A stretch of DNA of 62,144 nt from a candidate division WOR-3 bacterium (GCA_020343455.1 CP070795.1:1338756-1400899), one strand, 5' to 3'; counted from the first letter of the stretch, positions 10,850 through 51,046 are shown. Translations and numbers: made by a program. Notes: generated by a model from the letters alone, not told the origin.

Positions 10850-11467
10850 TTAGCGTCTTCTCAGAATGAATCCTGTGTCGTTGATGTAGACAAACATGGT
10901 ATCTGGAGTAGCATATTGAAATGCGGCGATACCATAGGCAGTGTCGACCCCGGGGATCTTTTCGGCATGTTTGAGGAGAAACCTCCACAGGCGCTCTTCC
11001 GGGTGGATTTGATAGATCGAGATCAGGGCGTCTTCGCCTATTTCACGACGGCCAGAGAAACGTGTGATGCGGTAGTAGGAACCAGCCCCTAACCAGCGAA
11101 GGAGGGCGCCCCACCTCAGGAAATATCCCTCGATCATCCACTGATCCCCTACAATATTGAAAAAATGCATTCGGTTCTCTCGTTCAATATAGAAGGTCAT
11201 TCTCGTGCTGTCATTCGCCGGTTCGGTGCAGACCCAGCCTATTCTCTCTTCGTGCGTATATCTGGCAAAAGTTTGCATAAACAAAGAAAGATATACCAGA
11301 GATGACGCAAACACGATAATAAGCAATGAAAGCAGGAGTCTGGACAAGAATACCTTGATCTTCTGCCTTCCCTTGATCGTCCGGAACAGAGAGTGGATTA
11401 GGAGGACGAGAGCAGACGTCAGGAATACCAGGCCGGCTAAACCGGTCAACAAGACGAATCTGTCCAT
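10850..11467 (-). CDS. Hypothetical membrane protein (two N-terminal TM helices)
   Basis: This is the long ORF. Its ATG lies 5 nt downstream of a consensus -10 box. No family was recognised. Confidence 0.5.
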   Translation of the reverse strand: MDRFVLLTGLAGLVFLTSALVLLIHSLFRTIKGRQKIKVFLSRLLLSLLIIVFASSLVYLSLFMQTFARYTHEERIGWVCTEPANDSTRMTFYIERENRMHFFNIVGDQWMIEGYFLRWGALLRWLGAGSYYRITRFSGRREIGEDALISIYQIHPEERLWRFLLKHAEKIPGVDTAYGIAAFQYATPDTMFVYINDTGFILRRR

Positions 11468-11472
11468 AGTGG

Positions 11473-11500
11473 ATTATAGCTTTAACATAGAGGGAGTCAA
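11473..11500 (-). promoter_or_regulatory. sigma70-type promoter giving a predicted leaderless transcript
   Basis: On the minus strand, TTGACT (11500-11495), a 16-nt spacer and TATAAT (11478-11473). Five nt (ccact) follow, then the ATG at 11467. Confidence 0.6.
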
Positions 11501-11562
11501 TGGGTGGTGCCCTCTGTACTTTGATCCTGCGGGGCACGAGACTTAAACCTCATTAGAGCCTC

Positions 11563-11591
11563 TTGACTGGATCATTCCGGCTCAATATAAT
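11563..11591 (+). promoter_or_regulatory. sigma70-type promoter for the small paralogue A gene
   Basis: TTGACT (11563-11568), a 17-nt spacer and TATAAT (11586-11591). AGGAGG lies before the ATG at 11645. Confidence 0.6.
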
Positions 11592-11644
11592 AGATTAAGT
11601 TGCTTGAGGTGTAAAAATGGCCTGTACTGTATTTAGGAGGATCG

Positions 11645-12076
11645 ATGGAAAATGATGCAGCGCGCATTGTGCTGCACTTCGAGGATGACAGGTTACTCAA
11701 AGGCTACACGAACGACTTTACCCCTCTAAGGGAGAAATTTCACCTGGTGTCTGATAATGAATGGGACAAGGGCAGGATCTATGAAGTCCATTGCTCAGAT
11801 CTCAAGGCGATCTTCTTCGTTAAGACGCTTGAGGGTAACAGAGACTATATCGAGAAGAAGGATTTCAGCGATGTTGACACTCAGGGACTCCGGGGCCTGA
11901 AGGTGAAGGTGGTGTTTCCAGATGGTGAAGTTATCCGTGGAACGAGTTTCGGTTACAGCCGAAGACGCAAAGGCTTCTTTGTCGTTCCGGTCGACCCCGA
12001 AAGCAATAATGAACGTATCTACGTAGTCACTGATAAAGTCCGTGCCGTTCGCGTTGGCGCCGAGGCTGAGCGATAA
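11645..12076 (+). CDS. Conserved hypothetical small protein, paralogue A (internally duplicated beta-rich module)
   Basis: By eye it is roughly 60 percent identical to the protein at 14435-14878. Shared blocks include LLKG-T-DFTP, KAIFFVKTL, GLRG-K-KV-F-DGEV-RG, KGFFV-PVDP-SNNER-YV. Confidence 0.6.
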   Translation: MENDAARIVLHFEDDRLLKGYTNDFTPLREKFHLVSDNEWDKGRIYEVHCSDLKAIFFVKTLEGNRDYIEKKDFSDVDTQGLRGLKVKVVFPDGEVIRGTSFGYSRRRKGFFVVPVDPESNNERIYVVTDKVRAVRVGAEAER

Positions 12077-12148
12077 TAAAGGTCAATTGCCGAAGCCGCG
12101 TCCGGAGTAACGAAGTCGTAACCTTGCATATGTAGTCTGCGCGCGTAC

Positions 12149-12177
12149 TTGACACGCACCAGCATGCCGCGTAACAT
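12149..12177 (+). promoter_or_regulatory. sigma70-type promoter giving a predicted leaderless transcript for the second DUF885 gene
   Basis: TTGACA (12149-12154), a 17-nt spacer and TAACAT (12172-12177). Six nt follow, then the ATG at 12184. No Shine-Dalgarno sequence is present. Confidence 0.55.
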
Positions 12178-12183
12178 CAATAG

Positions 12184-13857
12184 ATGAAGATCATCCGGAT
12201 CATTGGTATATTCGTTCTGGCAGGCGTTCTTACTTTCGCCATGGCGGCGGATTTCGATGTCATGGCTGACGAGATTCTGGAGGAGATCTGGGACTTCCAC
12301 CCGATTGCGGCGACTCATCTCGGGCGTCATGAGCATGATGCACGTATGCCGGACTATTCTGCGAAAGCACTGCAGGCAAGGTGTGAGCGTCTTGAGCAGT
12401 GGTATGACGCCTGGTGCACGATCGACACAATAGGAATGCCACCAGAGCGGCGCGTCGATTACATCCTGCTCAAGGCATCTCTCTATGATGAGATATACGA
12501 CATTCGAGAGGGCCGGGTATACGAAAAAAACCCGCTTGTCTATGTCCAGGCATGCGTTTACGGTGTCTATACCATATTGACCCGCCACGCTTCCGATCCT
12601 GACCAAAAGGCGGCAGCGGTCATTGCTCGGTTGAACCAGTTGCCATACTTTCTGAAGTGCGCAATGGAGAACCTCAAACGGCCGGCGGTTATACTGTGCG
12701 AGGTCGGTGTCGATCAGCTGAACGAAGGCGAAAGATTCATCGAGGATGTATTCGGGCACTTCAGTGATTCACTCAGTCCGGAGCGTGTGCTTGAATTTCA
12801 ACGGGCGAAAACAATAGCAGTTGCCGCAATGATGCAATTTGGATATTGGCTCCAGAAGAACGGGGATCCGGATGCTGTATATGCTTTGGGCAGGGAAGGT
12901 TACGACCTCAAATTGCATAATGTTCATCTTCTGGACATTGATGCCGACAGCTTGCTTAGGGTCGGCGAATATTATCTACGGGCTACAGGGGCAATGATCG
13001 ACAGTCTGACTGCATTGCTCAAACCGCCGCTCCGGCAAATGGTTGTCCTGCCTCCGGATTTTGGTCCGGCCCAGGTGGTTGAATACCGCGAGGAAGAATT
13101 GAGAGATGTGCGCGACTTTGTAGCAGCATCCGGCGTGTTGACCATACCGGCGTGGGTAGGTGATATCAAGATCGTCGAGACGCCGAGTTTTCTTGTAGGG
13201 CTGGTTCCGGGTGTGGCGATTATGCCGCCCGGTGCGTTTGATAAGTTACGGACGAGTTATTTCTACACACCGCGGCTTCCCGTCGTCTTTGACAGAAATG
13301 ACGCCGAGTATTATTATAACTACATACACAACCGATGGTTCCGGGAATCGGCAGTGCACGAGGCATATCCTGGTCATCACCTTCAGAAGTCGATTGCTAA
13401 CAATCACCCCTCGGCCGTACGTAAGAGCTTCGGCGACTACTTTCTCGTCGAGGGGTGGGCATTGTACTGCGAGGAATTGATGGTGCTGATTGGTTATTAT
13501 GAGGATACGGTCGCTGCAATGATTAACGCCCTTGAAGGCGTGAGGTACAGGGCAGCGCGGGTCGTCGTCGATGTCAAACTGCAGACCCGTAGCTTCACAT
13601 ATGAGGACGCGCTGCGTTTCATGGTTGATAATTTTGGGGGTAGTGAGGGGTATTATTCACGCGAGGTGAAGAGATACATCAGCAATCCAATACAGCCGTC
13701 CAGTTATCTGATCGGGAAATTGCAGTTACAGTCACTGCTTGAAGAATATAGATCGATGAAGGGTAGCGAATTCAGGCTGCGTGACTTTCACGATGAATTA
13801 CTGAGTCACGGGTCGATCCCGATCAAACTCATCCGAAGGCTCATGATAGGAGGATGA
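12184..13857 (+). CDS. DUF885 family protein, secreted paralogue
   Basis: The signal peptide is MKIIRIIGIFVLAGVLTFAMA. HEAYPGHHLQ and EGWALYCEELM motifs are present. Confidence 0.8.
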   Translation: MKIIRIIGIFVLAGVLTFAMAADFDVMADEILEEIWDFHPIAATHLGRHEHDARMPDYSAKALQARCERLEQWYDAWCTIDTIGMPPERRVDYILLKASLYDEIYDIREGRVYEKNPLVYVQACVYGVYTILTRHASDPDQKAAAVIARLNQLPYFLKCAMENLKRPAVILCEVGVDQLNEGERFIEDVFGHFSDSLSPERVLEFQRAKTIAVAAMMQFGYWLQKNGDPDAVYALGREGYDLKLHNVHLLDIDADSLLRVGEYYLRATGAMIDSLTALLKPPLRQMVVLPPDFGPAQVVEYREEELRDVRDFVAASGVLTIPAWVGDIKIVETPSFLVGLVPGVAIMPPGAFDKLRTSYFYTPRLPVVFDRNDAEYYYNYIHNRWFRESAVHEAYPGHHLQKSIANNHPSAVRKSFGDYFLVEGWALYCEELMVLIGYYEDTVAAMINALEGVRYRAARVVVDVKLQTRSFTYEDALRFMVDNFGGSEGYYSREVKRYISNPIQPSSYLIGKLQLQSLLEEYRSMKGSEFRLRDFHDELLSHGSIPIKLIRRLMIGG

Positions 13858-13879
13858 GTTTTGTGGTTGCAGACCCACC

Positions 13880-14284
13880 CCGTCAATGATAGTAGTTGAA
13901 TTCTGATCTGAATAGCCTTTCAACCTTTTGATCAAAGATCGTGCCCAGTTGAAGGCGGCAATCCCGCCGATGGTATTTCCGGTCACGATGCCCCACCATA
14001 TGCCCGGCAGATCCATGGCCAGAACATATGAGTAGATTTACGCAAGCGACACCGAGCCTTGTTGCCAGGGCAATTATCATGAAGAAGAATGGGAAGAAGA
14101 AGCCGACGGCCGAGAGCGCGTCGGGTCCCAGACCAGACACCCAGATCGCATCAACAAAACTGTATGTTGTCTGAACAGACATCGCGATGATCATTGGGAT
14201 AGAAAGCTTCACAATTGCTTTCTTGGGATTACCAAGAAGCGTTCGGACGCCATTAGTTTGTTTCGGCTGGGTTTCTCTGATTAT
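13880..14284 (-). pseudogene. MATE-family efflux transporter relic (N-terminal about 75 aa joined out of frame to C-terminal about 40 aa)
   Basis: One frame gives the MATE N-terminus LLGNPKKAIVKLSIPMIIAMSVQTTYSFVDAIWVSGLGPDALSAVGFFFPFF, with no ATG upstream. Another frame gives the MATE C-terminus GIWWGIVTGNTIGGIAAFNWARSLIKRLKG. About 350 aa of the middle are missing. Confidence 0.7.
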
Positions 14285-14387: not shown

Positions 14388-14415
14388 TTGACACATCAAG
14401 CAATATGGCTATGCT
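14388..14415 (+). promoter_or_regulatory. sigma70-type promoter for the small paralogue B gene
   Basis: TTGACA (14388-14393), a 16-nt spacer and TATGCT (14410-14415). GGAGG (14425-14429) lies before the ATG at 14435. Confidence 0.55.
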
Positions 14416-14434
14416 ATTAGAGAAGGAGGTTTGT

Positions 14435-14878
14435 ATGATGGATGGGGTGGCCGCCGAGAGAAACCGTATCGTCGTTCGATTCAAGGATGGGAGATTACTC
14501 AAAGGCTTCACGCATGACTTTACACCGGTCAAGGATTCCTTTCACCTAACCTCTGAATCGGAGGGTGATCAGGGTAAGATCTACGAAGTTTTCTGCCCGA
14601 ATCTGAAGGCAATCTTTTTTGTCAAGACCTTGAACGGCGACGTAAACTACAAAGAGAAAAAGAGGTTTGATGAAGTAGATACATCCGGTCTGAGGGGTAT
14701 CAAGATAAAAGTTGAGTTCAATGACGGCGAGGTGTTGCGCGGGATCAGTCTTGGCTACAGCAGGACGCGTAAGGGTTTCTTCGTCATACCCGTTGATCCG
14801 GACAGCAATAATGAACGCGTGTATGTCATTTCCAATGCCGTGCGTGACGTCAAGTTAGGTAGCGCGGCAGAGAAGTAG
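14435..14878 (+). CDS. Conserved hypothetical small protein, paralogue B
   Basis: It is a paralogue of 11645-12076. The start was moved to ATG 14435 because of the promoter and Shine-Dalgarno placement. Confidence 0.6.
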   Translation: MMDGVAAERNRIVVRFKDGRLLKGFTHDFTPVKDSFHLTSESEGDQGKIYEVFCPNLKAIFFVKTLNGDVNYKEKKRFDEVDTSGLRGIKIKVEFNDGEVLRGISLGYSRTRKGFFVIPVDPDSNNERVYVISNAVRDVKLGSAAEK

Positions 14879-20229: not shown

Positions 20230-20257
20230 TTGACAAGTATAGCAATATCCGTATAAT
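20230..20257 (+). promoter_or_regulatory. Consensus sigma70 promoter of the ftsB-like operon
   Basis: TTGACA (20230-20235), a 16-nt spacer and TATAAT (20252-20257). The leader is very short (GTG 20270 or ATG 20276). Confidence 0.6.
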
Positions 20258-20269
20258 TCAGTTTGTACG

Positions 20270-24407: not shown

Positions 24408-24417
24408 GTTAACCTCC

Positions 24418-28071: not shown

Positions 28072-28088
28072 CTTTTCCTCCTTAAAAA

Positions 28089-29554: not shown

Positions 29555-29563
29555 CGTTCCTCC

Positions 29564-30022: not shown

Positions 30023-30027
30023 CTCCT

Positions 30028-30579: not shown

Positions 30580-30607
30580 AATTCCTCCAGTCTTCAGTGA
30601 AATATAC

Positions 30608-30625: not shown

Positions 30626-30702
30626 GTTTCGATTTGTATAGGTTCGATATTACGGGTCTTTTCTATCGGACGAGTTCCCAGTGGCCAGTATTTTTCATTA
30701 AT

Positions 30703-30805: not shown

Positions 30806-30833
30806 TTGACTTTGAGGAGGCGAGGCGTATAAT
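30806..30833 (+). promoter_or_regulatory. sigma70-type promoter of the histidine kinase transcript
   Basis: TTGACT (30806-30811), a 16-nt spacer and TATAAT (30828-30833). Five nt follow, then an ATG at 30839. Confidence 0.55.
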
Positions 30834-30838
30834 AGACC

Positions 30839-30913
30839 ATGTCGTTATTGCGGCCGCTGTTCTTTGATATTCCTCGCAATCCATCCAGGGCGACGGCAAG
30901 GGAGAGAGGGTGA
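30839..30913 (+). CDS. Possible leaderless 24-codon upstream ORF (MSLLRPLFFDIPRNPSRATARERG)
   Basis: The ATG lies 5 nt after the -10 box. The stop codon TGA overlaps the kinase GTG start as GTGA. Confidence 0.3.
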   Translation: MSLLRPLFFDIPRNPSRATARERG

Positions 30914-32202
30914 GATTCGGCACGTTGCATCCGCGTGACATTGGGGTTATCTCCGTTATATTCATTATTCTTATCCTCTTCGTCGCGCTCTTCAATTTAT
31001 ATATCAGCTTTCAATTCAGGAACGAATTCATTGATTACGGACGGAACAACGTCCTGTCGATCATAGGCGTTTGCCGCGGTTACATGAATGATGGTTATGA
31101 TCGACGTGAATTGAGCTCCTTATTGAGAGGCGTGAGCCAGTCCTTTGGTCTTGCCCGCGTGACCGTCAGCGATACGCTGGGTAACCGGATCTATGATTCA
31201 TGGAGGCATATCGCTGCCATTGCCGCGTTCGAGGAGACCGACCACATGGAAATCTTCGCAAGGATGCCTGCGGCCGGAGAACTCGTACAGGAAGGTAACG
31301 AATTCATTTACTTGAGCACTGAGCCACCGGCATATTTCTACGTATCGTTGAGTCCCGCGTACACGGTCGTATTCGGGAATATTTTCCGCTGGCACATATT
31401 CTATATAACCATTTCGCTACTTTTCGCAAGCTTCCTGGGTCTATTCCTGCTGCGCAATCTATTTCTGCCGATGCGTTACGTGACCAACCTTGCGCAAAGT
31501 TTTGGGATTGAGATGAAGAAAGAGGATTTTGTGTCGGCTACATTCAGTGAAGTCTACAAGAAACTGAAGCTGCGGGAGCAGATGCTTGTCGAGTTTTCTG
31601 CATACATTGCGCATGAATTCAGAAACTCTCTTGGTGCCGTGATCGGTCTTGCCCGCCTCGTCGAGAAGGGAAAGAGACCGGCGGCAGAGATAATCAAAGA
31701 ATGCCGCACTATGGAAGAATTGATTGCACGGATATTGGAATATTCGAGGCCGTTGAAACTCGATATGGGCGACGTTAGTCTGAACACCGTTTTGAATGAC
31801 GCCCTCAGCAGGATTGCCATACCGAAGAGGATACGGGTCGTGAAAAAGACGATGTCGGGTATTCCGAGTATACGGGGCGATTACGAATTACTCACCGTCG
31901 CCTTCTGCAATCTTCTGAAGAATGCGAAAGAAGCGATAAAGGGCAAAGGGCAGATAACCATCATTACCGGGGTGAAGGACGGGGCGTGTTTTCTGTCGGT
32001 CGAGGATACCGGTGTTGGCATGGACAGCAGTGAATTGGAGATGGTTTTCAATCCATTCTTTTCGAGAAAGGCCGAGGGAATGGGGTTGGGGTTGGCATAT
32101 GTAAGGAAGGTAGTTGAAGAGCATGGCGGACATGTAGAGGCAAGAGGAAAGAAAGGTAGAGGTGCGACTTTCCTGGTGGAATTCCCTTCACGTCGCCGAT
32201 GA
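30910..32202 (+). CDS. Sensor histidine kinase (two TM helices, periplasmic loop, HisKA plus HATPase_c)
   Basis: The H-box is FSAYIAHEFRNSLGAVIG. N, G1 and G2 boxes are present (NLLKNAKEA, DTGVGM, GMGLGL). No response regulator is adjacent. Confidence 0.8.
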   Translation: MRFGTLHPRDIGVISVIFIILILFVALFNLYISFQFRNEFIDYGRNNVLSIIGVCRGYMNDGYDRRELSSLLRGVSQSFGLARVTVSDTLGNRIYDSWRHIAAIAAFEETDHMEIFARMPAAGELVQEGNEFIYLSTEPPAYFYVSLSPAYTVVFGNIFRWHIFYITISLLFASFLGLFLLRNLFLPMRYVTNLAQSFGIEMKKEDFVSATFSEVYKKLKLREQMLVEFSAYIAHEFRNSLGAVIGLARLVEKGKRPAAEIIKECRTMEELIARILEYSRPLKLDMGDVSLNTVLNDALSRIAIPKRIRVVKKTMSGIPSIRGDYELLTVAFCNLLKNAKEAIKGKGQITIITGVKDGACFLSVEDTGVGMDSSELEMVFNPFFSRKAEGMGLGLAYVRKVVEEHGGHVEARGKKGRGATFLVEFPSRRR

Positions 32203-41673: not shown

Positions 41674-42498
41674 TCAGTGCAATACCTTCTTCAACTTTAG
41701 GTTTACTTCCGCGTCGGCGATGTTCTCGGCAACGGCTCGCGAGAGTGCTTTGTATACATTGCGCAGGGTCCTTTCGTGCTTGAGGCTGGAGAGATGTTTT
41801 CTTATGATGCCTACATCACCGCGCGCCAGCGGGCCGGTCAGGGCATCTTGAACGCCGTATTTCTTGATATTATGCAGAGTCTCCTCAATGAGGGGGAAGA
41901 TCATTCGTTCGAAATCACTGCGTCGCCAACCGATCTTGGCGGCGAGCCTGTCGATCGATGCGATGAGCCCGATCAGAAGATTCGATGAGAATACTCCGAT
42001 CAGATGATAGGCAGCCTTGTCGACCTTGCGGATCTTCCTGATTGTGAAATGTTTACTGCGGAAGATCTTCCGCAGCATTTTCACTGCTGGTGCATCACCC
42101 TCAACAGAAAGAAAGATATGCTTCCTCTTTGGGTGAGACTTGGCTGCTGGGAATGTGGCAAAAGGGTGGACCGACGCACGGTAGATCTTCTTGGATTTTG
42201 GGATGATGTCTGCGGTCAGCATGCCGCTGAAATGGAATATGTATGTCCTTTTCCTTATGTGCCGGCTTATATTTGCGAATGCATTCAGGATTTCGTCGTC
42301 CGGTGTGGCGATGAAGATCGCTTCACTGCGGCTGATTATTTCACGGAGGCCGGGGTTTTCTCTTATCTTCAGCAGCTTCGCGGTAGTGCGCTCGTTCTTC
42401 TTTCTTATGTCATACACGCCGGTGATCTTGTTGTCCCTTCTGAGAATGCAAAATATCGCAGTGCCGACGCGTCCGCAACCGATGAGCCCTATGCGCAT
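41674..42498 (-). CDS. Rossmann-fold NAD(P)-binding protein with a DUF2520-like C-terminus
   Basis: MRIGLIGCGRVG sits at the extreme N-terminus. The family call is made from memory of the domain architecture. Confidence 0.6.
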   Translation of the reverse strand: MRIGLIGCGRVGTAIFCILRRDNKITGVYDIRKKNERTTAKLLKIRENPGLREIISRSEAIFIATPDDEILNAFANISRHIRKRTYIFHFSGMLTADIIPKSKKIYRASVHPFATFPAAKSHPKRKHIFLSVEGDAPAVKMLRKIFRSKHFTIRKIRKVDKAAYHLIGVFSSNLLIGLIASIDRLAAKIGWRRSDFERMIFPLIEETLHNIKKYGVQDALTGPLARGDVGIIRKHLSSLKHERTLRNVYKALSRAVAENIADAEVNLKLKKVLH

Positions 42499-42503
42499 GG
42501 CTT

Positions 42504-42532
42504 ATTATACCGCTGTGCCGCCGAGGCGTCAA
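42504..42532 (-). promoter_or_regulatory. sigma70-type promoter giving a predicted leaderless transcript
   Basis: On the minus strand, TTGACG (42532-42527), a 17-nt spacer and TATAAT (42509-42504). Five nt follow, then the ATG at 42498. Confidence 0.6.
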
Positions 42533-42569: not shown

Positions 42570-43946
42570 TTAGATTGTGACGGTGGTTAGGGTCTGTGGT
42601 ATGTCAGCGTCAACCCCGATTGTCTTGATTTTTTCTTGCAGGGCTTGCGATTCTTCGATCTCACCGTGCACGAGATATACCTTCTTAAGCTGGCCATTCC
42701 GCGTTGCTTCTACATACTGGAGGAGGTCACTGCCGTCGGCGTGGGCCGACAGACCTGCCATGAGATATGTCTTCGCGCGCATCTCAAAATCGTCGTTGAA
42801 GATCGTGACCTTGGACGCGCCTTCCAGTATCTTTCTGCCAAGTGTAGCATGGGCCTGAAAGCCGGTGAGGACGATCATGTTGCGTGCGTCACCAATGCTG
42901 TGGATTAGGTGGTGCGTTACCCTTCCTCCTTCACACATGCCGGATGCGGAAATTATGATCATTGGCCCGGCCTTATCGTTGAGGGATTTTGATTCCTCGG
43001 TATCGGCAACGTAATGTAAATTCGGGAAGTTGAAAGGGTCGCCTTCGTTGAAGATCTTTATCGTTTCGGCATCGAAACACTCGGGGTGTCTGCGGAAAAC
43101 GTCAGTGACATTTGAGGCGAGTGGACTATCGACATACACCGGCACGTTCTTCAAGCACCCTTCGTCAAAGAGGTTCTTTAGCATCGTCACCAGCAGTTGC
43201 GTGCGCTCGACGGCAAATGCAGGAATGATCATCTTGCTGCTCTTCTTTTTCGCCGTTTCGATGATTTCTTTCAGTTCTTCTTGCATGTTTTCGAAGGAGT
43301 GGTGTTGTCTTCCACCGTATGTCGATTCAAGGATCATGTAATCGATGTTCCTCACGACCACCGGATCTTTTATTATCGGCATTCCTTTGCGTCCAAGGTC
43401 GCCGGAGAACAATAGGCGCTTTCCATCGGCTTCGATGACTGTGACCGACGATCCAAGTATGTGCCCGGCATCGTGCAGTGTGATGTGCACTCCGGTGACG
43501 GGTTCGAAACTAGTGTTGTAGTCGACCGCTTGAAGCTGCTCGATGGTCTTCTCGGCATCGGCGATAGTGTAGAGGGGTTGTTTTGGTGGCATCCCCTTCT
43601 CCTTCCGTTTCTTATTGAGATATTCAAAATCGTATTCTTGAATCTTCGCCGAATCGAGAAGCAGTAGTGAGGCGATGTCCTTAGTCGCGCTCGTGCAGAA
43701 TATTGGTCCACTGAATCCGCGTTTCACGAGATTAGGAAGATTTCCCGAATGATCTATATGTGCGTGAGAGAGTATAACGGCCTTGATCTCCTTTGGCTTG
43801 AACGGAAACGTACTGTTGATGCGTTCGGCTTCCTCTCGGTGCCCCTGGAACATCCCGCAGTCGAGGAGGAATTTTTGTTTATTGTATTCGATTAGATGTA
43901 GTGAACCTGTTACAGTGCGCGCCGCGCCGATGAATGTTACATCCAC
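42570..43946 (-). CDS. MBL-fold beta-CASP family ribonuclease/hydrolase
   Basis: Motifs present are FIGAARTVTGS, the metallo-beta-lactamase HAHIDHSG, and beta-CASP segments. The start codon is GTG. Confidence 0.8.
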   Translation of the reverse strand: MDVTFIGAARTVTGSLHLIEYNKQKFLLDCGMFQGHREEAERINSTFPFKPKEIKAVILSHAHIDHSGNLPNLVKRGFSGPIFCTSATKDIASLLLLDSAKIQEYDFEYLNKKRKEKGMPPKQPLYTIADAEKTIEQLQAVDYNTSFEPVTGVHITLHDAGHILGSSVTVIEADGKRLLFSGDLGRKGMPIIKDPVVVRNIDYMILESTYGGRQHHSFENMQEELKEIIETAKKKSSKMIIPAFAVERTQLLVTMLKNLFDEGCLKNVPVYVDSPLASNVTDVFRRHPECFDAETIKIFNEGDPFNFPNLHYVADTEESKSLNDKAGPMIIISASGMCEGGRVTHHLIHSIGDARNMIVLTGFQAHATLGRKILEGASKVTIFNDDFEMRAKTYLMAGLSAHADGSDLLQYVEATRNGQLKKVYLVHGEIEESQALQEKIKTIGVDADIPQTLTTVTI

Positions 43947-43951
43947 ATAAG

Positions 43952-43979
43952 ATTGTACATGTTACACTGCTATCGTCAA
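43952..43979 (-). promoter_or_regulatory. sigma70-type promoter giving a predicted leaderless transcript for the beta-CASP gene
   Basis: On the minus strand, TTGACG (43979-43974), a 16-nt spacer and TACAAT (43957-43952). Five nt follow, then the GTG at 43946. The first base of the -35 box is the outermost base of the left inverted repeat. Confidence 0.55.
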
Positions 43980-44012
43980 GGGGGACGGTGCTTGACAATT
44001 TGACAATTTTCT
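43979..44012 (+). repeat. Left inverted repeat
   Basis: The sequence is aGGGGGACGGTGCTTGACAATTTGACAATTTTCt. It contains a tandem TTGACAAT-TTGACAAT. Confidence 0.9.
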
Positions 44013-44019
44013 CTACAAT
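43992..44019 (+). promoter_or_regulatory. sigma70-type promoter of the Y1 transposase-like gene, with its -35 box inside the left repeat
   Basis: TTGACA (43992-43997), a 16-nt spacer and TACAAT (44014-44019). Six nt follow, then the GTG at 44026. Confidence 0.55.
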
Positions 44020-44025
44020 GCAAAC

Positions 44026-44922
44026 GTGCGCAGAGCGCGTATCACATTTCCTGGAGCTTTTCATCATGTCATGAATCGCAGCATCCGCGGTGAGAAGATC
44101 TTCTTTGACAACAAGAGCAGGGCACATTTCATCGCGCTTCTCGAGGAGAAGATTGATTTGCTGAAGCAGAGGGTTCTTGCATATTGCCTGATGGACACGC
44201 ACTACCATCTCATACTTCAGAATACATCAGGCCGGCTCTCGGATTTCATGAGGGAGTTGAACGGACAGTTTGGCATGTACTTTCGCAAACGGGTCGGCGG
44301 TGCGGGTTATGTCTTTCAGTCTCGTTTCAAATCTACTCTGATCCAAGAAGATCGTTATCTGCAGATGGCGATAATCTATGTTCTTCTCAATCCTGTGCGC
44401 AAGGCTTGGGTCACATTGCCGTGGGAATACGAATGGTCGAGCATCGGTGAATATTTCAAAGGCGTTGATTCTCGTCTGGTGGACAACCGATTTGTCGAAG
44501 AGTTATACGAGACAAAGACCAACATGAAGGAACGTCTGGCTGAGTGGGTGAATATTGAGTTACCTGTGAGCGATACGAGATTGGGCGAGGTTGTTGGCGA
44601 TGGCGATTTTGTGGATTCTGCGGTGAAAAGATTCGATCCTCGGAAGGGAATGGATAAGTCGGATGAATCCGAAATGGATGATCGCAAATTCGAAGATGCG
44701 GCACGATTAATCAAGTGCTTCGAAGCCGAAAAAGGGCTGAAGATTGAGGAAATCGATACTGGAAATCACCTGGGGAAAGCCCTACGTGCCGAGCTGCTGG
44801 TGCTGCTCAAAGACAAAGCAGGCCTTACATATTCAGAGATTGTCACCTTCCCGCTGTTTGGTTCTTTAAAATATTCTTCCCTGGGAAAACTGTATAGACG
44901 TGCTAAGGATGGTTGCTATTGA
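44026..44922 (+). CDS. REP-associated tyrosine transposase (RayT)/IS200-like HUH protein with a C-terminal DnaA-domain-IV-like helix-turn-helix
   Basis: The N-terminus is FHHVMNRS. The HUH motif is DTHYHLIL and the Tyr motif is IIYVLLNPVRK. The C-terminal segment LRAELLVLLKDKAGLTYSEIVTFPLFGSLKYSSLGKLYRRA resembles DnaA domain IV. Confidence 0.7.
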   Translation: MRRARITFPGAFHHVMNRSIRGEKIFFDNKSRAHFIALLEEKIDLLKQRVLAYCLMDTHYHLILQNTSGRLSDFMRELNGQFGMYFRKRVGGAGYVFQSRFKSTLIQEDRYLQMAIIYVLLNPVRKAWVTLPWEYEWSSIGEYFKGVDSRLVDNRFVEELYETKTNMKERLAEWVNIELPVSDTRLGEVVGDGDFVDSAVKRFDPRKGMDKSDESEMDDRKFEDAARLIKCFEAEKGLKIEEIDTGNHLGKALRAELLVLLKDKAGLTYSEIVTFPLFGSLKYSSLGKLYRRAKDGCY

Positions 44923-44939: not shown

Positions 44940-44973
44940 AGAAAATTGTCAAATTGTCAAGCACCGTCCCCCT
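44940..44973 (-). repeat. Right inverted repeat
   Basis: It is the exact reverse complement of 43979-44012. It overlaps the anti-sigma stop codon by 2 nt. Confidence 0.9.
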
Positions 44974-45439: not shown

Positions 45440-46131
45440 AATTTTGCCTTCATGTGATTCCTCAAATTCTTTACGGCTAGATGGTGATTGACTTTGATCG
45501 TACTTATCGGCTTCTTCAATATATCGCTCACTTCCTGGTATGACATATCCTCAAGAGTTCGCAATGTGAAAACTGCTCGCTGCACGGTCGGCAGTTTCTC
45601 AACTGCTTCATAGATCATCTCACGCAGTTTCTTGTTCCGATAACGCTCAACGGGATCATCCTTTCCGCTGCTGACGATTTCGTCGTATATCTCCTCGGTT
45701 GGTCGCTGTTTCTTCAGGTAGTTGAGACAGTTATTGACCGCTATCCTGTATAGCCACGTGGAAAACTGCGACCGGCCATCGAACTTCGTGATCTTCCGGT
45801 AGGCCTTAATGAATGTTTCCTGCGCCATGTCCCGTGCGTCATCATAGTTGCGCAAAATCTTATAACAAAGATCATGGATCTTGATGCTGTGCCTGCGCAC
45901 CAGTTCGTCGAATGGTTGTGGTTCGCCGGATTTTACCAGTTGCACAAGCTCGGCATCACTGAGCTGCCGATATTTAGACAGCCTATCGCCGAATGAGTTT
46001 ACCCCTTCGGCTCGGTCCTTCTTCTGCCGCCCTTTATTCTTTCGCGACCGCGCGGCCTTCGTTTCTGCACCAGCCATCTTTTCCGCCATTTTTGGGGGAT
46101 TTTTCTCCTGCCCTATGCTCTTGTTGCGCAT
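45436..46131 (-). CDS. ECF (sigma-24) RNA polymerase sigma factor with a basic N-terminal extension
   Basis: Region 2 (FDELVRRHSIKIHDLCYKIL...DAEDMAQETFIKAY type) and region 4 (MSYQEVSDILKKPISTIKVNHHLAVKNL) are recognisable. About 50 Lys/Arg-rich residues precede region 2. The start codon is uncertain. Confidence 0.75.
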   Translation of the reverse strand: MRNKSIGQEKNPPKMAEKMAGAETKAARSRKNKGRQKKDRAEGVNSFGDRLSKYRQLSDAELVQLVKSGEPQPFDELVRRHSIKIHDLCYKILRNYDDARDMAQETFIKAYRKITKFDGRSQFSTWLYRIAVNNCLNYLKKQRPTEEIYDEIVSSGKDDPVERYRNKKLREMIYEAVEKLPTVQRAVFTLRTLEDMSYQEVSDILKKPISTIKVNHHLAVKNLRNHMKAKL

Positions 46132-46146
46132 TCAATGCGGTCATTA

Positions 46147-47292
46147 CTAGTATCCGCGTTTTCTTCCGATTAGTTGCATTATTCTGTTACGTATCTTGCT
46201 GACCGAATCTCCCGTTTGCTCGGCGATACGTTTGAGGTCGCGGTATTCGACTGAGTACTTTGTTCTGCCATCATATTCAATGATTTTCACCCGGACATTA
46301 CCGTAGGGGGAAGCGATTCTCCGCATCCTTCGTTGGAACTTCAATCTCCTTACGTTGTCCAAGCGAAAACCGATCGACGTTGTGTGTGCGAAGAGAACAT
46401 CGACCACGTAGTCGAGGTTCTTCTGGCATAAGACGGTCAAGTGGATGCCAGGCCGGGAGCGTTTCATTATTGTGGGCGTGAGGAAGACGTCGAGTGCTCC
46501 GGCCGCATAGAGTTTCTCAAATAGCATTTCAAAGTCTTGAGGGTTCATATCGTCGATATTGGTCTGGATGACCGTGCATTCATCGGTCAGGTGATCGTAT
46601 GACTCGCCGAGGAAGACACGCAAAATGTTCGGGTGATCTTTGATGTCCCTGGACCCGGCGCCCAGTCCAATTCCGTTGATCTTCGAAACGAAAAGATCTT
46701 CACGAGGTGTAGCGATGCTGCTCAGTATTGCAGCTCCGGTTGGTGTGGTAAGTTCAGCAGAGGTCGGGACGAAGTGCACCGGGAATTTCTTGAGCAGTAA
46801 TGCGGTCGCAAAGTTGAAGGCGGGCATATTCCCTTCGATCGTCTTGACAAAACCAGCGCCAGCTTTCACCGGCCTTGAATATACCTTATCTACCTTTAGT
46901 ACATCTAACCCAACGAGCACACCTACGATATCGAGGAGCGTGTCGGCGTCGGCGAGTTCATGGAGGTGCAAATGCTCCGTACGGTGTACCCGCTTCTCAA
47001 CCGCAAAAATCCTTTCGATGATATCGATTGCCTGGTCCTTGATCCGCGATGGAAGTTTGCTCTTCTTAATGAGCGGAATGAACTGTTTCTCACGTATCTT
47101 CTTGCGTATGGTGAAGCTGACCTTGCAGGCGTTTACACCTTGGCGAGTGACGCGGCCGACTTTCAGTTCTGAACCCGGAACGAAGCTCAATGCCTTCCGC
47201 AGATGGTCTCGCTTGACGCCGAGATCGATGAGAGCAGCGAGTATCATATCTACGCTTGCCCCGCCGATCGGGTCGAAGTAAAGCAATTTCAT
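46147..47292 (-). CDS. larC: Nickel-pincer cofactor nickel insertion protein LarC (DUF111)
   Basis: Motifs present are MKLLYFDPIGGASVDMILAALIDLGV, ELTTPTGAAIL, TNIDDMNPQDFE, GALDVFLTPTIMKRSRPG and TTSIGFR. The start was set at ATG 47292, overlapping the larB stop codon as ATGA. Confidence 0.8.
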   Translation of the reverse strand: MKLLYFDPIGGASVDMILAALIDLGVKRDHLRKALSFVPGSELKVGRVTRQGVNACKVSFTIRKKIREKQFIPLIKKSKLPSRIKDQAIDIIERIFAVEKRVHRTEHLHLHELADADTLLDIVGVLVGLDVLKVDKVYSRPVKAGAGFVKTIEGNMPAFNFATALLLKKFPVHFVPTSAELTTPTGAAILSSIATPREDLFVSKINGIGLGAGSRDIKDHPNILRVFLGESYDHLTDECTVIQTNIDDMNPQDFEMLFEKLYAAGALDVFLTPTIMKRSRPGIHLTVLCQKNLDYVVDVLFAHTTSIGFRLDNVRRLKFQRRMRRIASPYGNVRVKIIEYDGRTKYSVEYRDLKRIAEQTGDSVSKIRNRIMQLIGRKRGY

Positions 47293-47969
47293 GACCGGTT
47301 GATCGTTGAAGCGATATAACCTGCCCCAAAGCCGTTGTCGATGTTTACGACCGCGACCCCCGGTGCGCATGAATTGAGCATGGTCAGGAGAGGAGTAATG
47401 CCCTGGAGACTCAGCCCGTAACCGATGCTCGTCGGCACCGCGATGATCGGTCTGGAGAATAGTCCACCGGCTACTGATGGCAGAACGCCGTCCATGCCGG
47501 CTACGACGATCAGGACCCGCGATTTTTCGATGCGTTCCCGGAAGGCCAGCAGGCGGTGGACACCTGCGACCCCGACATCATATATTCGCTGTACCCGGCT
47601 GCCCATTACTTCGGCGGTCACTGCCGCTTCCTCGGCGACCGGAATGTCCGCTGTGCCGCCACTGAGTACGGATATGAGTCCAACCTTTGGCAGACCTTTG
47701 CCCGTGTGGAAGATCTTCGCATCGGGGTGGTACTTGCCTTTAGGGAATTTCTTCTTGAGTGCTCTACCGACCTCTGGAGTGACTCTTGTCAGTAGAACGA
47801 TTTCATTTGCCCTGCATATTTTTGCGGCAATCGCCAGCACCTGTTCTTTCGTCTTCCCCTGGCAGAAAACGACTTCGGGGAACCCTTTTCTCTTTGCCCG
47901 GTGCAAGTCTACTTTTGCATAGCCCATATCTTCGAACGGATCGATGTACACCTTGTCTTTCTTGTTCAT
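47289..47969 (-). CDS. larB: Nickel-pincer cofactor biosynthesis protein LarB (PurE-like carboxylase/hydrolase)
   Basis: Motifs present are GFPEVVFCQGKT, SGGTADIPVAEEAAVTAEVMG, DVGVAGVHRLL, VVAGMDGVLPSV and VVNIDNGFGAGY. Confidence 0.8.
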   Translation of the reverse strand: MNKKDKVYIDPFEDMGYAKVDLHRAKRKGFPEVVFCQGKTKEQVLAIAAKICRANEIVLLTRVTPEVGRALKKKFPKGKYHPDAKIFHTGKGLPKVGLISVLSGGTADIPVAEEAAVTAEVMGSRVQRIYDVGVAGVHRLLAFRERIEKSRVLIVVAGMDGVLPSVAGGLFSRPIIAVPTSIGYGLSLQGITPLLTMLNSCAPGVAVVNIDNGFGAGYIASTINRS

Positions 47970-48070
47970 AATTTTCCTGTCATCTATGTGACTTGGTACC
48001 TTGTCTCTCGACTACCAGTTCTTCCTGTTGTTGTGACATCTTCATTTCAGCATTCCGCAATCTCTGTGGG

Positions 48071-49468
48071 TTAGAAAACTTCGGCTGAAAAGCGGTATAC
48101 TTCTATATCTTTCGAACGTAACGAATCAACGGGCAACCCTGCTTTGTAACAGGTATGGACGAGGAATTCATCGACATCCCAGCCCTGTTCGACCGGCACC
48201 TGTGGTAGCAGTAACCCTCCATAAATGCCTTTTTGAATGTACAGGCCGTCGCGTCCGATGACGATTTCACTCTTATCCCGTACCGGCTGCATTGGAGTAA
48301 GGACTGAGATTTCGATCTCCAGATCGGCTAATTCTTCGGCAGTGACGGGCGGGAAACGCGGGTCCTGCAGGGCAGCAGCCTGTGCCATTTGCCCGCACAG
48401 TTCGTACACTGGATGATCGCCAATGTACCGTCCTATGCATCCGCGGAGGTCTCCGTGTTTCTTGATCGTGACGAATATGCCATATGGCTCTTGGAGTTTC
48501 TTCGTTATTTTTTCCGGTTTAGGTGCCGGTTTTCCTCGAACGGCGTTCTCTATGGATGTGCGTGCGATCTCTCTCAGTGTTTCTTTTTCGTCATCACTGA
48601 ACCCCAGATCGACGCCGACTTTCACCTTCTTCTCCTTATAAAAAGCGGCTGCCATGTACCCGACGACTTGCGTATGATCGCCCGTGATGTCGCCGCTCGT
48701 TGCATATAGCAGCGGTTTGGCCTTGTCTGCGCCAAGTTCGCGTGCGACCAGCATTGCAGTGATCATAGGACCTCCGCCGCAGGCGTCACAGCTCCGGCTA
48801 CTGAGCCTTTCATGGAGTAATTCGGGGTCGAATTTTGCGACCGCGTCGACGACCATTTTGTCAAGCGCCTCGGCTCGTTTCTGAGATTGGTAATGTGATA
48901 GATCAGAACTGGCAACGATCAAAACCTTCCTTCCCCTGGTTGCTTTGGCGATCGCCTTGCTCAGCATTTCGCAGGTCTTATAATCCTGCGTGCCCATTAT
49001 GATCTCTATCGCCTTGAATTTCCCGACGGTGAATTGTATGAAGGGCATTTGGATCTCAACCGAGTGTTCAGCGGCATGGGCGTCGGGTTCGTAAGTTATA
49101 TCTTTGTCTGCGGCTATCAGTCTCCTGGCGATCTCAATGTCAAAGTCGATCTTTCCCAGCGGCGTTTGTCGACCAGACAACGTGTCGACCGATGCACCGT
49201 AGAAAGCGTGGCGGTGACTGGGACCAATGACGACGACGTCGTCGCATTCCCATCCCCCAAACAGCTTGTAGGCATACGCCGCGACCGGGCCCGAATACAT
49301 GTATCCGGCATGGGGCGAGATCAAGCCGACTATCTCGCCGGGTACGGTTGCCTCAGCCTTATCCAGGTAGCCGGTGATGGTCTCCCTCAATTCCTTCTCG
49401 GTACCGGGGTACCATGTGCCGGCATGCGGCGAAGCCCGGTATTCTTTCCCTTCGCACTTCTGTGCCAT
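48071..49468 (-). CDS. Fusion of Memo-like (AmmeMemoRadiSam protein B) and AMMECR1 (protein A) domains
   Basis: The N-terminal half carries AGTWYPG, ISPHAGYMYSG and SSDLSH (Memo). The C-terminal half carries GIFVTIKKHGDLRGCIG and LQDPRFPPV (AMMECR1). ATG 49468 is preferred because AGGAG lies 8 nt upstream. The alternative start is 49516. Confidence 0.7.
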   Translation of the reverse strand: MAQKCEGKEYRASPHAGTWYPGTEKELRETITGYLDKAEATVPGEIVGLISPHAGYMYSGPVAAYAYKLFGGWECDDVVVIGPSHRHAFYGASVDTLSGRQTPLGKIDFDIEIARRLIAADKDITYEPDAHAAEHSVEIQMPFIQFTVGKFKAIEIIMGTQDYKTCEMLSKAIAKATRGRKVLIVASSDLSHYQSQKRAEALDKMVVDAVAKFDPELLHERLSSRSCDACGGGPMITAMLVARELGADKAKPLLYATSGDITGDHTQVVGYMAAAFYKEKKVKVGVDLGFSDDEKETLREIARTSIENAVRGKPAPKPEKITKKLQEPYGIFVTIKKHGDLRGCIGRYIGDHPVYELCGQMAQAAALQDPRFPPVTAEELADLEIEISVLTPMQPVRDKSEIVIGRDGLYIQKGIYGGLLLPQVPVEQGWDVDEFLVHTCYKAGLPVDSLRSKDIEVYRFSAEVF

Positions 49469-49509
49469 AAAAAGTACTCCTGTGAAGATAATACACCAAA
49501 GAGATCTAT

Positions 49510-49848
49510 TCAACATGTTAGATGCAGGCAGGCGATGACTTTCCTTTCCTGAGCGATTCTATTGTACTCCTGACATGCCTGCTCGGTTGGCATGATAACC
49601 ATTTCTATATGTAATTTCTCCATTTCGGCGATCGTCGTGCTTGAAATGTTCATTAGTCCTGGTTGGCCGGTACCGAATATGACTGTATCGGGATGGGCAT
49701 CAATGACCTGTCTGATATCATCCAGTTCCAGAATATGCCCCCTTTTTCTCAACCATCGCGAGTCGACATGGTCAGTGTATATGATTACGTCGGTGTGGTA
49801 AGTCTTGCCCGAGATGACGATCTCACCGAATCTATATGCTTCAATCAC
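49510..49848 (-). CDS. Mth938-like (DUF498) domain protein
   Basis: Motifs present are FGEIVISGKTYHTDVII and DTVIFGTGQPG. The GTG start lies 6 nt after a -10 box. Confidence 0.6.
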   Translation of the reverse strand: MIEAYRFGEIVISGKTYHTDVIIYTDHVDSRWLRKRGHILELDDIRQVIDAHPDTVIFGTGQPGLMNISSTTIAEMEKLHIEMVIMPTEQACQEYNRIAQERKVIACLHLTC

Positions 49849-49854
49849 ATATCA

Positions 49855-49882
49855 ATCATACGGAATATCAGGGTAGTGTCAA
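49855..49882 (-). promoter_or_regulatory. sigma70-type promoter giving a predicted leaderless transcript, heading the Mth938-like to anti-sigma gene string
   Basis: On the minus strand, TTGACA (49882-49877), a 16-nt spacer and TATGAT (49860-49855). Six nt follow, then the GTG at 49848. Confidence 0.6.
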
Positions 49883-50067
49883 GACACTCCTGCCCCGAAA
49901 AGGGGAAGCAAATCATCGGAGAAACCGAGGAGCAGAAGTCGGAACCGCATCATCACCAGATAATCGGCATACCACTGCGTTCGATCGGCACTCGGCATCG
50001 AGACACGGGTTCAGTTCATTGGATTCGGCAAATGTGCCGCAGTATGATATGCTTTCCCATAAATTTC

Positions 50068-50096
50068 TTGACATTCATTCACCAAACGTGTAGGAT
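50068..50096 (+). promoter_or_regulatory. sigma70-type promoter giving a predicted leaderless transcript for lpxD
   Basis: TTGACA (50068-50073), a 17-nt spacer and TAGGAT (50091-50096). Five nt follow, then the GTG at 50102. Confidence 0.55.
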
Positions 50097-50101
50097 TGGG
50101 C

Positions 50102-51046
50102 GTGAAGCTTGAGGCTATTGCGTTGGTCGTCGAGGGCGAGGCATACGGGGACATACGGTTTGATGTGAAGAGTGTAGTACCGCCGATAGAGGCGCAATCA
50201 TCGGATCTCACTTTTCTCTTCGATGCTTCGGTGGAGACGAAGGCCGGGGCGGTCATAAGCGACAGGAAGATTGAAGGCAAGAGCGGCATTGTTGTGAAGG
50301 ACCCGAAGAACGCAATGTTTCGCCTCCTGAGAGTTTTCGCAGAAGTCGAGAGGAAAGCCGAAATCTCTCAGCGCGCAGTCATCGAGTACGGCGCGAGGTT
50401 GGCGAGTTCCTGTACTGTCGAACCTCTAGCAGTGATAAAGAGGAATGCCCAAGTCGGTCATGGTACCTACATCGGTGCACAGTGCTACATCGATGAGGGG
50501 GTGATGATCGGCGCGAACTGCCGAATTCTACCGGGTGCCGTACTCTTCAAACACACACAGATCGGGAATTTCGTTGCAATCGACTCGAATACCGTCATTG
50601 GCAAAGAGGGTTTCGGTTACGTGAAGAAAGAGCGCTATGAAAGGATCCGGCATATTGGCGGCGTCATTATAGGTGATTTCGTCGAAATCGGCAGTTGTGT
50701 GTCGATCGACCGTGGCACCGTGGGAAATACGGTGATCGGTGAAGGAACGAAAATAGATAATCAGGTGCATATTGCCCATAATGTGAGGATCGGTAAGAAT
50801 TGCATCATCATGGGACAAGCAGGGATCGCCGGTTCTGCCAAGATCGGTGACAATGTAATCCTCTGCGGTCAGGTGGGGATAAGCGATCATCTGGAAGTCG
50901 AGAACGATGTCATTGTCCTGGCAAAAAGCGGCGTCTTCAAGTCGCTCAAGCACGGTGCGAAGTATTCCGGGATCCCGGCACGTGAGCACAACGCAGTGCT
51001 GAAGGCTCTAGCCCGTCTTTACGCTGATATCGAGTCGGATAAGTGA
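50102..51046 (+). CDS. lpxD: UDP-3-O-acylglucosamine N-acyltransferase
   Basis: The N-terminal domain carries SDLTFL. A long left-handed beta-helix of hexapeptide repeats follows. The gene lies upstream of lpxC. Confidence 0.8.
   Translation: MKLEAIALVVEGEAYGDIRFDVKSVVPPIEAQSSDLTFLFDASVETKAGAVISDRKIEGKSGIVVKDPKNAMFRLLRVFAEVERKAEISQRAVIEYGARLASSCTVEPLAVIKRNAQVGHGTYIGAQCYIDEGVMIGANCRILPGAVLFKHTQIGNFVAIDSNTVIGKEGFGYVKKERYERIRHIGGVIIGDFVEIGSCVSIDRGTVGNTVIGEGTKIDNQVHIAHNVRIGKNCIIMGQAGIAGSAKIGDNVILCGQVGISDHLEVENDVIVLAKSGVFKSLKHGAKYSGIPAREHNAVLKALARLYADIESDK

Follow-up and report, generated by a model that had tools for sequence, protein, structure and literature searches.

Leaderless ATG and GTG starts in Deinococcus deserti stand immediately behind a -10 box, and TTG is absent from them (de Groot et al. 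2014, PMC4007540). In mycobacteria, an ATG or GTG at the 5' end is required, and is enough, for leaderless initiation (Shell et al. 2015, PMC4633059), and about a quarter of transcripts are leaderless there (Shell et al. 2015; Cortes et al. 2013 as cited in PMC6028130). The gene-finding study behind GeneMarkS-2 gathered such genomes in its group C, where a Pribnow box stands 6-8 nucleotides (nt) from the starts of operon-first genes, other genes carry a Shine-Dalgarno (SD) ribosome-binding site at the same distance, and leaderless transcripts are predicted for 25-50% of operons (Lomsadze et al. 2018, PMC6028130); in that survey of ~5000 genomes, the group was made up mostly of Actinobacteria (773/859) and Deinococcus-Thermus (37/38) (PMC6028130). 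Here, we describe a comparable arrangement in a 62,144-nt stretch of DNA (CP070795.1:1338756-1400899, hereafter the window) from a bacterium of candidate division WOR-3, which is named Caldifarciminota in the current NCBI taxonomy. An original prediction had placed nine start codons of the window 5-6 nt behind a -10 box. We found this geometry to be real at eight genes and at the relic of a ninth, and leaderless mRNAs, produced beside strongly GGAGG-led genes, are very probably the best explanation for it.

We extracted the 60 nt upstream of each of the nine coordinates and scanned the window for a strict promoter motif, TTGAC-N17-19-TAnnnT. All nine sites carried TTGAC(A/T/G), a 16- or 17-bp spacer and TAnnnT (mostly TATAAT, TACAAT or TAGAAT), followed, after 5 nt (11467-, 30839+, 41564-, 42498-, 43946-, 50102+) or 6 nt (12184+, 44026+, 49848-), by an ATG or GTG, exactly as had been claimed for the promoters, the gaps and the codons, four GTG starts included. 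Eight of the sites head genuine protein-coding genes, which are organised as follows (the gap runs from the -10 hexamer to the start codon; aa, amino acids):

10850..11500 (-), unit 1: promoter 11500-11473, TTGACT-N16-TATAAT, 5 nt, ATG 11467; gene 11467-10850, a 205-aa membrane protein so far seen only in WOR-3-type genomes
12149..13857 (+), unit 2: promoter 12149-12177, TTGACA-N17-TAACAT, 6 nt, ATG 12184; 557-aa DUF885 protein with a signal-peptide-like N-terminal segment
40638..41597 (-), unit 3: promoter 41597-41570, TTGACT-N16-TAGAAT, 5 nt, ATG 41564; 308-aa secreted Big_5-like protein
41674..42532 (-), unit 4: promoter 42532-42504, TTGACG-N17-TATAAT, 5 nt, ATG 42498; 274-aa Rossmann/DUF2520 protein
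42570..43979 (-), unit 5: promoter 43979-43952, TTGACG-N16-TACAAT, 5 nt, GTG 43946; 458-aa beta-CASP metallo-beta-lactamase nuclease
43992..44922 (+), unit 6, divergent from unit 5: promoter 43992-44019, TTGACA-N16-TACAAT, 6 nt, GTG 44026; 298-aa Y1-transposase-like (RayT-like) protein
49510..49882 (-), unit 7: promoter 49882-49855, TTGACA-N16-TATGAT, 6 nt, GTG 49848; 112-aa DUF498 (Mth938-like) protein
50068..51046 (+), unit 8: promoter 50068-50096, TTGACA-N17-TAGGAT, 5 nt, GTG 50102; lpxD, 314 aa

The ninth site, 30839, opens no protein gene but a relic of 24 codons, to which we return below. Three of the units are followed by further genes on the same strand. Downstream genes overlap and lack an SD in the operon headed by unit 3 (40660-38723 and 38726-38187, -), and the downstream starts of the unit 8 operon, lpxD-lpxC-S9 peptidase (50102-53938, +), likewise overlap and lack an SD, while unit 7 is followed by five more same-strand genes as far as 44972, with 101 nt between the second and third genes.

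The promoter matches themselves far exceeded chance. The strict motif occurred 27 times in the window versus 4.0 ± 1.8 times in dinucleotide-preserving shuffles, none of 100 shuffles reaching 27, indicating that most strict matches are real promoters; a separate consensus scan of 38-52 kb ranked the six candidate promoters there within its top eight. Among 26 distinct promoter matches, 8 stood 5-6 nt ahead of a start opening an open reading frame (ORF) of at least 100 aa, where 0.41 were expected from the density of such start codons (P=4.6e-9), and no such long-ORF start was found at 0-4 or 7-14 nt. When only the first start codon of each ORF was counted, 6 were observed versus 0.05 expected. 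Anchoring the analysis on genes instead, TAnnnT ended 5 or 6 nt upstream in 8 of 56 curated starts, with 0.61 expected per offset (P=3.6e-5).

The in-silico tests covered the window and ~0.4 Mb of related WOR-3 DNA. Using the beta-CASP protein as query, we gathered relatives that proved to be candidate division WOR-3 genomes: the bin53 genome (CP070705) at 95% protein-level identity to the window, seven further WOR-3 genomes at 73-80%, and more distant WOR-3/Stahlbacteria loci at ~46% (related loci are cited by L number). With 2.30 Mb, the bin53 genome is the smallest among the four complete chromosomes seen in the relatives. The window itself is contained in sediment metagenome DNA runs; its organism has a GC content of ~50%, and the lpxD and lpxC genes encoded in it suggest an LPS-type (lipopolysaccharide) outer membrane. 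From window and relatives, we compiled a site-level data set of 59 leaderless-type and 97 SD-led sites and an orthologue-collapsed data set of 21 leaderless-type and 41 strong-SD gene families. Promoter matches again lay against starts in 29/43 cases (L002-L008), 5/10 (L062, L053), 6/16 (L085-L088) and 5/15 (the non-syntenic L092), and the -10 box showed a sharp peak 5-6 nt ahead of the start in the window and 5-7 nt ahead in the relatives, the distance that had been forecast. An identical analysis of 70 loci from other phyla (984 kb) gave 4/121 versus 3.7 expected, no enrichment, indicating that the method itself makes no artefactual peak; since most strict matches in these phyla occur at chance density, this control says nothing on leaderless genes there. 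Of the 27 strict matches, ~4 would be expected at random, but a chance juxtaposition of promoter-like strings and ORF starts is refuted by P≈5e-9 in the window, replication in non-syntenic WOR-3 loci and conservation across orthologues.

Hence, the promoter-against-start observation is real and confirmed. A relaxed search of the window (4/6 matches in the -35, or an extended -10) yielded extra matches that all fell inside genes, and the eight genes plus the relic are the full leaderless-type set in the window. An Rfam search of the window returned one tRNA only, with no riboswitch or leader RNA that would account for the sites. The -35/-10 spacer was 16 bp in 40 of 52 scored leaderless-type promoters and in most strict window matches, whereas the Escherichia coli consensus spacer is 17 bp; were the start codon the transcription start, the promoter would be 2 bp more compact than the E. 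coli consensus from -35 to start.

Several lines of evidence bear on the start codons. The eight genes encode proteins of 112-557 aa whose Pfam matches begin at or near residue 1: residues 2-109 align to profile positions 1-109 of DUF498, the Rossmann fold extends from residue 1, and the assigned starts agree in register with the N-terminal domains of the beta-CASP, Y1-transposase and LpxD proteins, in line with the family-typical N-termini that had been claimed for the beta-CASP, LpxD, Mth938-like and RayT-like proteins. A Rossmann GxGxxG motif is present in the 42498 product as proposed, at residues 7-12 and not 6-11. Hydrophobic, signal-peptide-like segments, read by eye and without a predictor, begin at residue 1 in the 12184 and 41564 products, for which signal peptides had been put forward, and also in the 11467 product, most of whose homologue clusters among those listed are 205 aa long at ~100% coverage. 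In six of the eight leaderless-type genes, no earlier start codon is available between the preceding in-frame stop and the assigned codon; the other two have an upstream in-frame TTG, but it falls within the promoter (in the -35 region for 41600, on the -10 hexamer for 50096). Upon comparing orthologues, we found that amino-acid conservation and codon periodicity (third-position wobble) begin at codon 2. Across eight related loci, public gene calls agree with the promoter-adjacent codon in 13 of 15 cases.

Could the starts nevertheless have been mis-assigned, with translation from a downstream codon and a leader mistaken for coding sequence? Nothing specific favours this, although gene callers do sometimes pick downstream starts: the public DUF885 calls L089 7557-9221 (-) and L090 7557-9182 (-) begin 5 and 17 codons downstream of the promoter-adjacent ATG, which stands 6 nt after TTGACA-N16/17-TAnnnT, and these two annotations are probably truncated. 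We checked the next in-frame downstream start codons of the eight genes and found none with an SD; together with the conserved homologue lengths, the Pfam profiles that run from residue 1-2, the N-terminal hydrophobic segments of the 12184, 41564 and 11467 products and the conservation from codon 2, this makes mis-assignment very unlikely. Overall, these comparisons indicate that the predicted start codons of the leaderless-type genes are correct.

The arrangement has also been retained over considerable divergence. Between orthologues at 45-80% protein identity, the upstream DNA was unalignable except for the -35 and -10 hexamers and the start codon, whose spacing stayed fixed, and this footprint was seen for the beta-CASP, DUF2520, LpxD, DUF498, RayT-like, Big_5, DUF885 and M6 peptidase genes:

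43946 (-), beta-CASP: arrangement kept in 8 of 8 orthologues (L001-L008)
42498 (-), DUF2520: kept in 7 of 7 compared (L001 and L003-L008)
50102 (+), LpxD: TTGACA-N17-TAgGAT-5 nt-GTG kept in 6 of 6, with GTG every time
49848 (-), DUF498: arrangement and GTG kept in 5 of 6
44026 (+), RayT-like: arrangement and GTG kept in 3 of 3 (L001, L004, L006)
41564 (-), Big_5: arrangement kept in 9 of 10
12184 (+), DUF885: kept in the metagenome homologues L081 and L083 (~60% identity) and in the paralogous copies L089 and L090

In the distant WOR-3 loci L062 and L053, the beta-CASP gene is preceded by TTGCAT-N16-TAAACT-5 nt-ATG. The metagenome scan for DUF885 gave four loci only, two of them useful, and in L081 and L083 the gene follows TTGACA-N17-TAnnnT-6 nt-ATG. 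Orthologues of 11467 vary: the gap measures 5 nt in L092 but 8 nt in L089 and L090 (10001), and the copy of the low-GC L091 (10001) is SD-led (GGAG with an 8-nt gap). SD-led genes, for their part, remain SD-led across relatives, as in the whole type IV pilus-like operon. The mode of initiation is conserved gene by gene across the relatives, though it is not immutable.

A further signature lies in the bases around the start codon. The -1 base was a pyrimidine at 52 of 59 leaderless-type sites versus 27 of 97 SD-led sites, and the difference held by gene family (19/21 versus 15/41, P=4.5e-5). Leaderless-type start codons comprised 37 ATG, 21 GTG and a single TTG, compared with 11 TTG among the 97 SD-led sites; as the majority start of a family, TTG occurred in 0/21 leaderless-type versus 3/41 SD-led families. 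An apparent enrichment of GTG at leaderless starts (21/59 versus 8/97, P=3.5e-5 by site) fell to 6/21 versus 6/41 by family (P=0.31), and we do not claim it. Bacterial RNA polymerase favours starts with a purine at +1 behind a pyrimidine at -1 (PMC5730371), a preference that has been extended to a YRY "start element" (PMC12641261), where Y is a pyrimidine and R a purine. Y-ATG and Y-GTG are themselves YRY triplets matching this Y(-1)R(+1)/YRY element, and the -1 pyrimidine and first-base purine would agree with a transcript that begins at the start codon's own first base.

Leaderless-type genes stand beside a separate set led by SD sites. About half of the remaining genes are preceded by SD 5-mers, which peak at a distance of 4-5 nt, and the SD and -10 peaks fall on different genes, each conserved in relatives, which bears out the coexistence of two initiation modes that the original prediction had described. 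None of the eight leaderless-type starts has a strong SD; the sole 4-mer match, AGGA at 50102, is part of the -10 hexamer TAGGAT. The SD-led genes include the following:

14388..14878 (+), an example of the second mode: promoter 14388-14415, a ~13-nt leader with AGGAGG, ATG 14435, DUF6982 protein
Other SD-led starts: 459, 3632-, 6457, 9694-, 11645, 15398, 22834, 24015-, 24407-, 28071-
Further SD-led starts: 28565-, 29554-, 30016-, 36741, 37456, 57424-

The GGAGG-led genes cited earlier are real. Two details change: the start at 22834 is on the plus strand, and the gene assigned a start at 30022 is SD-led but more likely begins at ATG 30016, since the GTG belongs to the GGAGGTG of the SD. Roughly 29 genes of the window are first in a transcription unit, 8 of them leaderless-type (~28%, and 14% of all window genes), a share that deserves the word "substantial" used of it before; at least 11 first genes combine a strict promoter with a leader that carries an SD. 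Of the 150 genes called in eight related loci, 15 were leaderless-type.

The box lies about as far from the start as an SD would, and some phylogenies put WOR-3 near FCB lineages, where non-SD motifs are common; TAnnnT could on that count be an A/T-rich non-SD ribosome-binding or unstructured-leader signal of the Bacteroidota-like kind (GeneMarkS-2 group B). We consider this highly improbable. A conserved TTGAC hexamer lies at a fixed 16-17 bp upstream in every case, GGAGG is clearly used elsewhere in the genome, and the box is confined to first genes, with none at internal genes of operons, while motifs of the group B kind stand before every gene (PMC6028130). Moreover, a bias towards Y(-1) and a scarcity of TTG belong to transcription starts and not to ribosome binding.

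We therefore favour leaderless mRNAs, in a scheme where sigma-70-type promoters would be placed such that RNA polymerase begins at the start codon's A or G. mRNAs made in this way would have neither a 5' untranslated region (UTR) nor an SD, and a ribosome carrying initiator tRNA would recognise the 5'-terminal AUG or GUG through the leaderless pathway. Other transcription units would produce short leaders with a strong GGAGG, while internal operon genes would use GGAGG or the coupling of overlapping stop and start codons. Geometry, excess over chance, conservation and the Y(-1)R(+1) signature all support the leaderless interpretation originally offered; the exact transcription start site and the use of the 5'-terminal codon for initiation we infer from the DNA.

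Five points weigh against this scheme. First, with the most frequent gap of 5 nt, the codon's first base falls on position 6 behind the -10 box, whereas in E. coli the modal start is position 7, with position 6 used in ~8% of cases (PMC5730371), so the model needs a lineage-specific preference or sequence-directed start selection. As position 7 is T and position 5 a pyrimidine, a start at position 6 would be expected under the Y(-1)R(+1) rule. Second, site counts in the relatives are not independent because the loci are syntenic, which is why gene-family counts are given alongside. Third, the mode is not invariant, the 11467 orthologue being SD-led in L091 and preceded by an 8-nt gap, with an implied 1-2-nt leader, in L089 and L090. 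Fourth, we sought RNA sequencing runs containing parts of the window and found none, the transcription starts being predicted. Fifth, units 5, 4 and 3 follow one another on the same strand only 71-73 nt apart, no terminator being predicted in the gaps, and read-through transcripts across them probably also exist.

This last point touches on the possibility that the promoters are real but secondary, most mRNA arising from upstream promoters or read-through and being leadered or polycistronic. Read-through is plausible where no minus-strand terminator-like hairpin separates units 5, 4 and 3, yet the start codons on such transcripts would lack any SD, and the promoter-to-start spacing is nucleotide-exact across the phylum. 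Nor do the divergent pairs leave much room for other promoters: the 79 nt between 43946- and 44026+ are wholly taken up by the two promoters, and the 253-nt gap between 49848- and 50102+ holds no other strict promoter match. A merely secondary role is thus improbable.

Site 30839 records the loss of a gene. Two features overlap here:

30806..30913 (+), relic unit: promoter 30806-30833, TTGACT-N16-TATAAT, 5 nt, ATG 30839, 24-codon ORF, TGA 30911-30913
30910..32202 (+), histidine kinase gene: 430 aa, GTG start preceded by GGGAGAGAGG, SD-led (GGGAG-type)

The TGA of the relic ORF and the kinase GTG at 30910 overlap in the sequence GTGA, and many histidine kinase homologues are also 430 aa long. 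In L085-L087, the pilus operon and the kinase are separated by a 554-aa Peptidase_M6 gene, which starts with GTTGAC-N16-TATAAT-5 nt-ATG, that is, TATAAT-ag(a/c)c(c/t)-ATG, an arrangement identical to that of the window; the N-terminus of the peptidase in these relatives, MLLFGLMLFLMPPNPY, resembles that of the window relic, MSLLRPLFFDIPRNPS. A deletion of ~1.6 kb removed the M6 gene (regions compared: window 30555-30913; L085 6194-7858; L086 8281-9945; L087 8284-9948; L088 9672-10004), and it is common to the window and bin53 but absent from three more distant relatives. The relic peptide differs between window and bin53 at 5 of 24 residues, while the adjacent kinase is 93% identical, indicating that the peptide looks unconstrained. 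The promoter now probably drives the histidine kinase through a ~71-nt leader with its own SD. Hence, 30839 is by all appearances a genuine leaderless-type promoter without its gene, which supports the regime historically but adds no ninth leaderless gene. Readings of 30839 as a real gene start or as a frameshifted kinase start were rejected in favour of the deletion relic. A minus-strand 300-aa ORF, 30028-30930, which would overlap the relic promoter, was likewise set aside as over-extended: it carries a prepilin N-methylation motif at residue 133, and its real start is ATG 30579, behind a GGAGG.

Other features of the window touch on the two modes. Minimal leaders follow the promoters at 3745, 14388, 22782, 24062(-) and 57474(-), with 19-25 nt from -10 to start and hence an implied 5' UTR of ~13-19 nt, little more than AGGAGG. 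The DivIC/FtsB-like gene 20230-20563 (+) has a perfect TTGACA-N16-TATAAT whose -10 box is followed by a GTG after 12 nt and an ATG after 18 nt; with a ~5-11-nt leader and only a weak SD, it is borderline, close to the leaderless type. The type IV pilus-like operon 24102-30579 (-), which is headed by the prepilin-motif gene of ATG 30579 and encodes pilins, PilW and a PilY1-like 1217-aa protein, has a strong SD at every gene. Downstream of a leaderless first gene (38187-41564 -, 44972-49848 -, 50102-53938 +), a strong SD was found at 0 of 9 genes, most of which overlap or nearly abut the preceding gene, versus ~7 of 17 internal genes elsewhere (hand-computed one-sided Fisher P ~0.03). This contrast would fit SD-independent re-initiation, but it is a weak trend, five of the seven belonging to the pilus operon.

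The string 44972-49848 (-) runs DUF498, Memo-AMMECR1 fusion, AIR-carboxylase-like (LarB-like), nickel-insertion (LarC-like), ECF sigma factor and zf-HC2 anti-sigma factor, an unusual combination with a single leaderless promoter at its head. Two promoters stand back to back in the 79-nt divergent region between the beta-CASP and RayT-like genes (43947-44025), together with a repeated TTGACAA(T)TTGACAA and the motif CACCGTCCCCC. Upon comparing the L004 and L006 regions, we found the CACCGTCCCCC motif in tandem copies in L006, upstream of the beta-CASP gene, and the region may be a REP-like element tied to the RayT-like gene. Beyond unit 2, a 109-aa ORF (13883-14212, -) aligns with the MatE profile over its first 51 positions alone; as a full MatE gene (~465 aa) lies at the same place in L089 and L090, this ORF is probably what is left of a second gene in the lineage.

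The leaderless mode is known from Deinococcus and mycobacteria, and for WOR-3 we found no report: no paper in the library searched combines "leaderless" and "WOR-3", and the paper on the WOR-3 isolate that is now in culture makes no mention of promoters, transcripts or SD sites (PMC12285271). The existence of this isolate makes the prediction directly testable. A specialist will find the result unsurprising; it is useful for the annotation of WOR-3 genomes and as a model for the co-evolution of promoter and start codon. WOR-3 gene starts and promoters become readable straight from sequence, where callers that assume an SD sometimes truncate leaderless genes (the two DUF885 calls) and longest-ORF rules sometimes over-extend them (the window TTGs 41600 and 50096 inside promoters). 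The near-consensus promoters offer a clean system for the co-selection of transcription start and start codon, with Y-RTG doubling as a YRY element. A candidate phylum would be added to the bacteria that use leaderless initiation at scale, which bears on whether the mode is ancestral or has arisen repeatedly. That WOR-3 (Caldifarciminota) as a whole may be an unrecognised leaderless-rich phylum, with compact promoters, a gene-fixed mode, efficient GUG initiation and SD-free operons, is a tentative suggestion that we hold to be rather doubtful. If true, leaderless status would be fixed gene by gene over phylum-scale divergence, and operons with a leaderless head gene would be translated wholly without SD, via re-initiation at overlapping stop/start sites.

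Known leaderless systems resemble the window in different respects. The archaea of GeneMarkS-2 group D (Haloferax, Sulfolobus) likewise keep a fixed spacing of promoter and start codon and translate from the 5'-terminal codon. An archaeal RNA polymerase, however, reads promoters with a TATA/BRE box ~22-26 nt upstream, whereas the window has a bacterial -35 TTGAC and a -10 TATAAT ending 5-6 nt from the start. In the sporadic leaderless genes of E. coli and its phages (lambda cI, Tn1721 tetR), the transcript begins at AUG, as we propose here; in contrast to WOR-3, where GTG is conserved at several starts, leaderless genes are rare and weakly translated in E. coli, and GUG is poor (PMC4633059, PMC4007540). 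The Actinobacteria are high-GC and Gram-positive with a weak or absent -35, unlike the window with its mid GC, its lpxD and lpxC genes and its strong -35 and -10.

The resemblance to D. deserti is close: a TAnnnT/TATAAT -10 box stands against ATG or GTG, GGAGG-type SD genes coexist, TTG is virtually absent, and leaderless genes spread across many functional classes (PMC4007540). Yet 60% of its mapped transcription starts are leaderless, and no conserved -35 was found (PMC4007540), compared with ~28% of transcription units and a near-consensus TTGAC at 16-17 bp in every case in the window. The D. deserti starts were proven by differential RNA sequencing and N-terminal proteomics (PMC4007540), while those of WOR-3 are predicted from sequence. 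Mycobacteria, too, largely keep leaderless status between orthologues (73%, Mycobacterium smegmatis versus M. tuberculosis), and their 5'-RTG small ORFs are comparable to the 24-codon relic of the window (PMC4633059). Both D. deserti and mycobacteria show the same asymmetry of TTG versus ATG/GTG as WOR-3 (PMC4007540, PMC4633059). Overall, group C provides the best-fitting operational definition. Taken for this 62-kb window alone, the ~28% of transcription units that are leaderless-type would fall within its 25-50% range.

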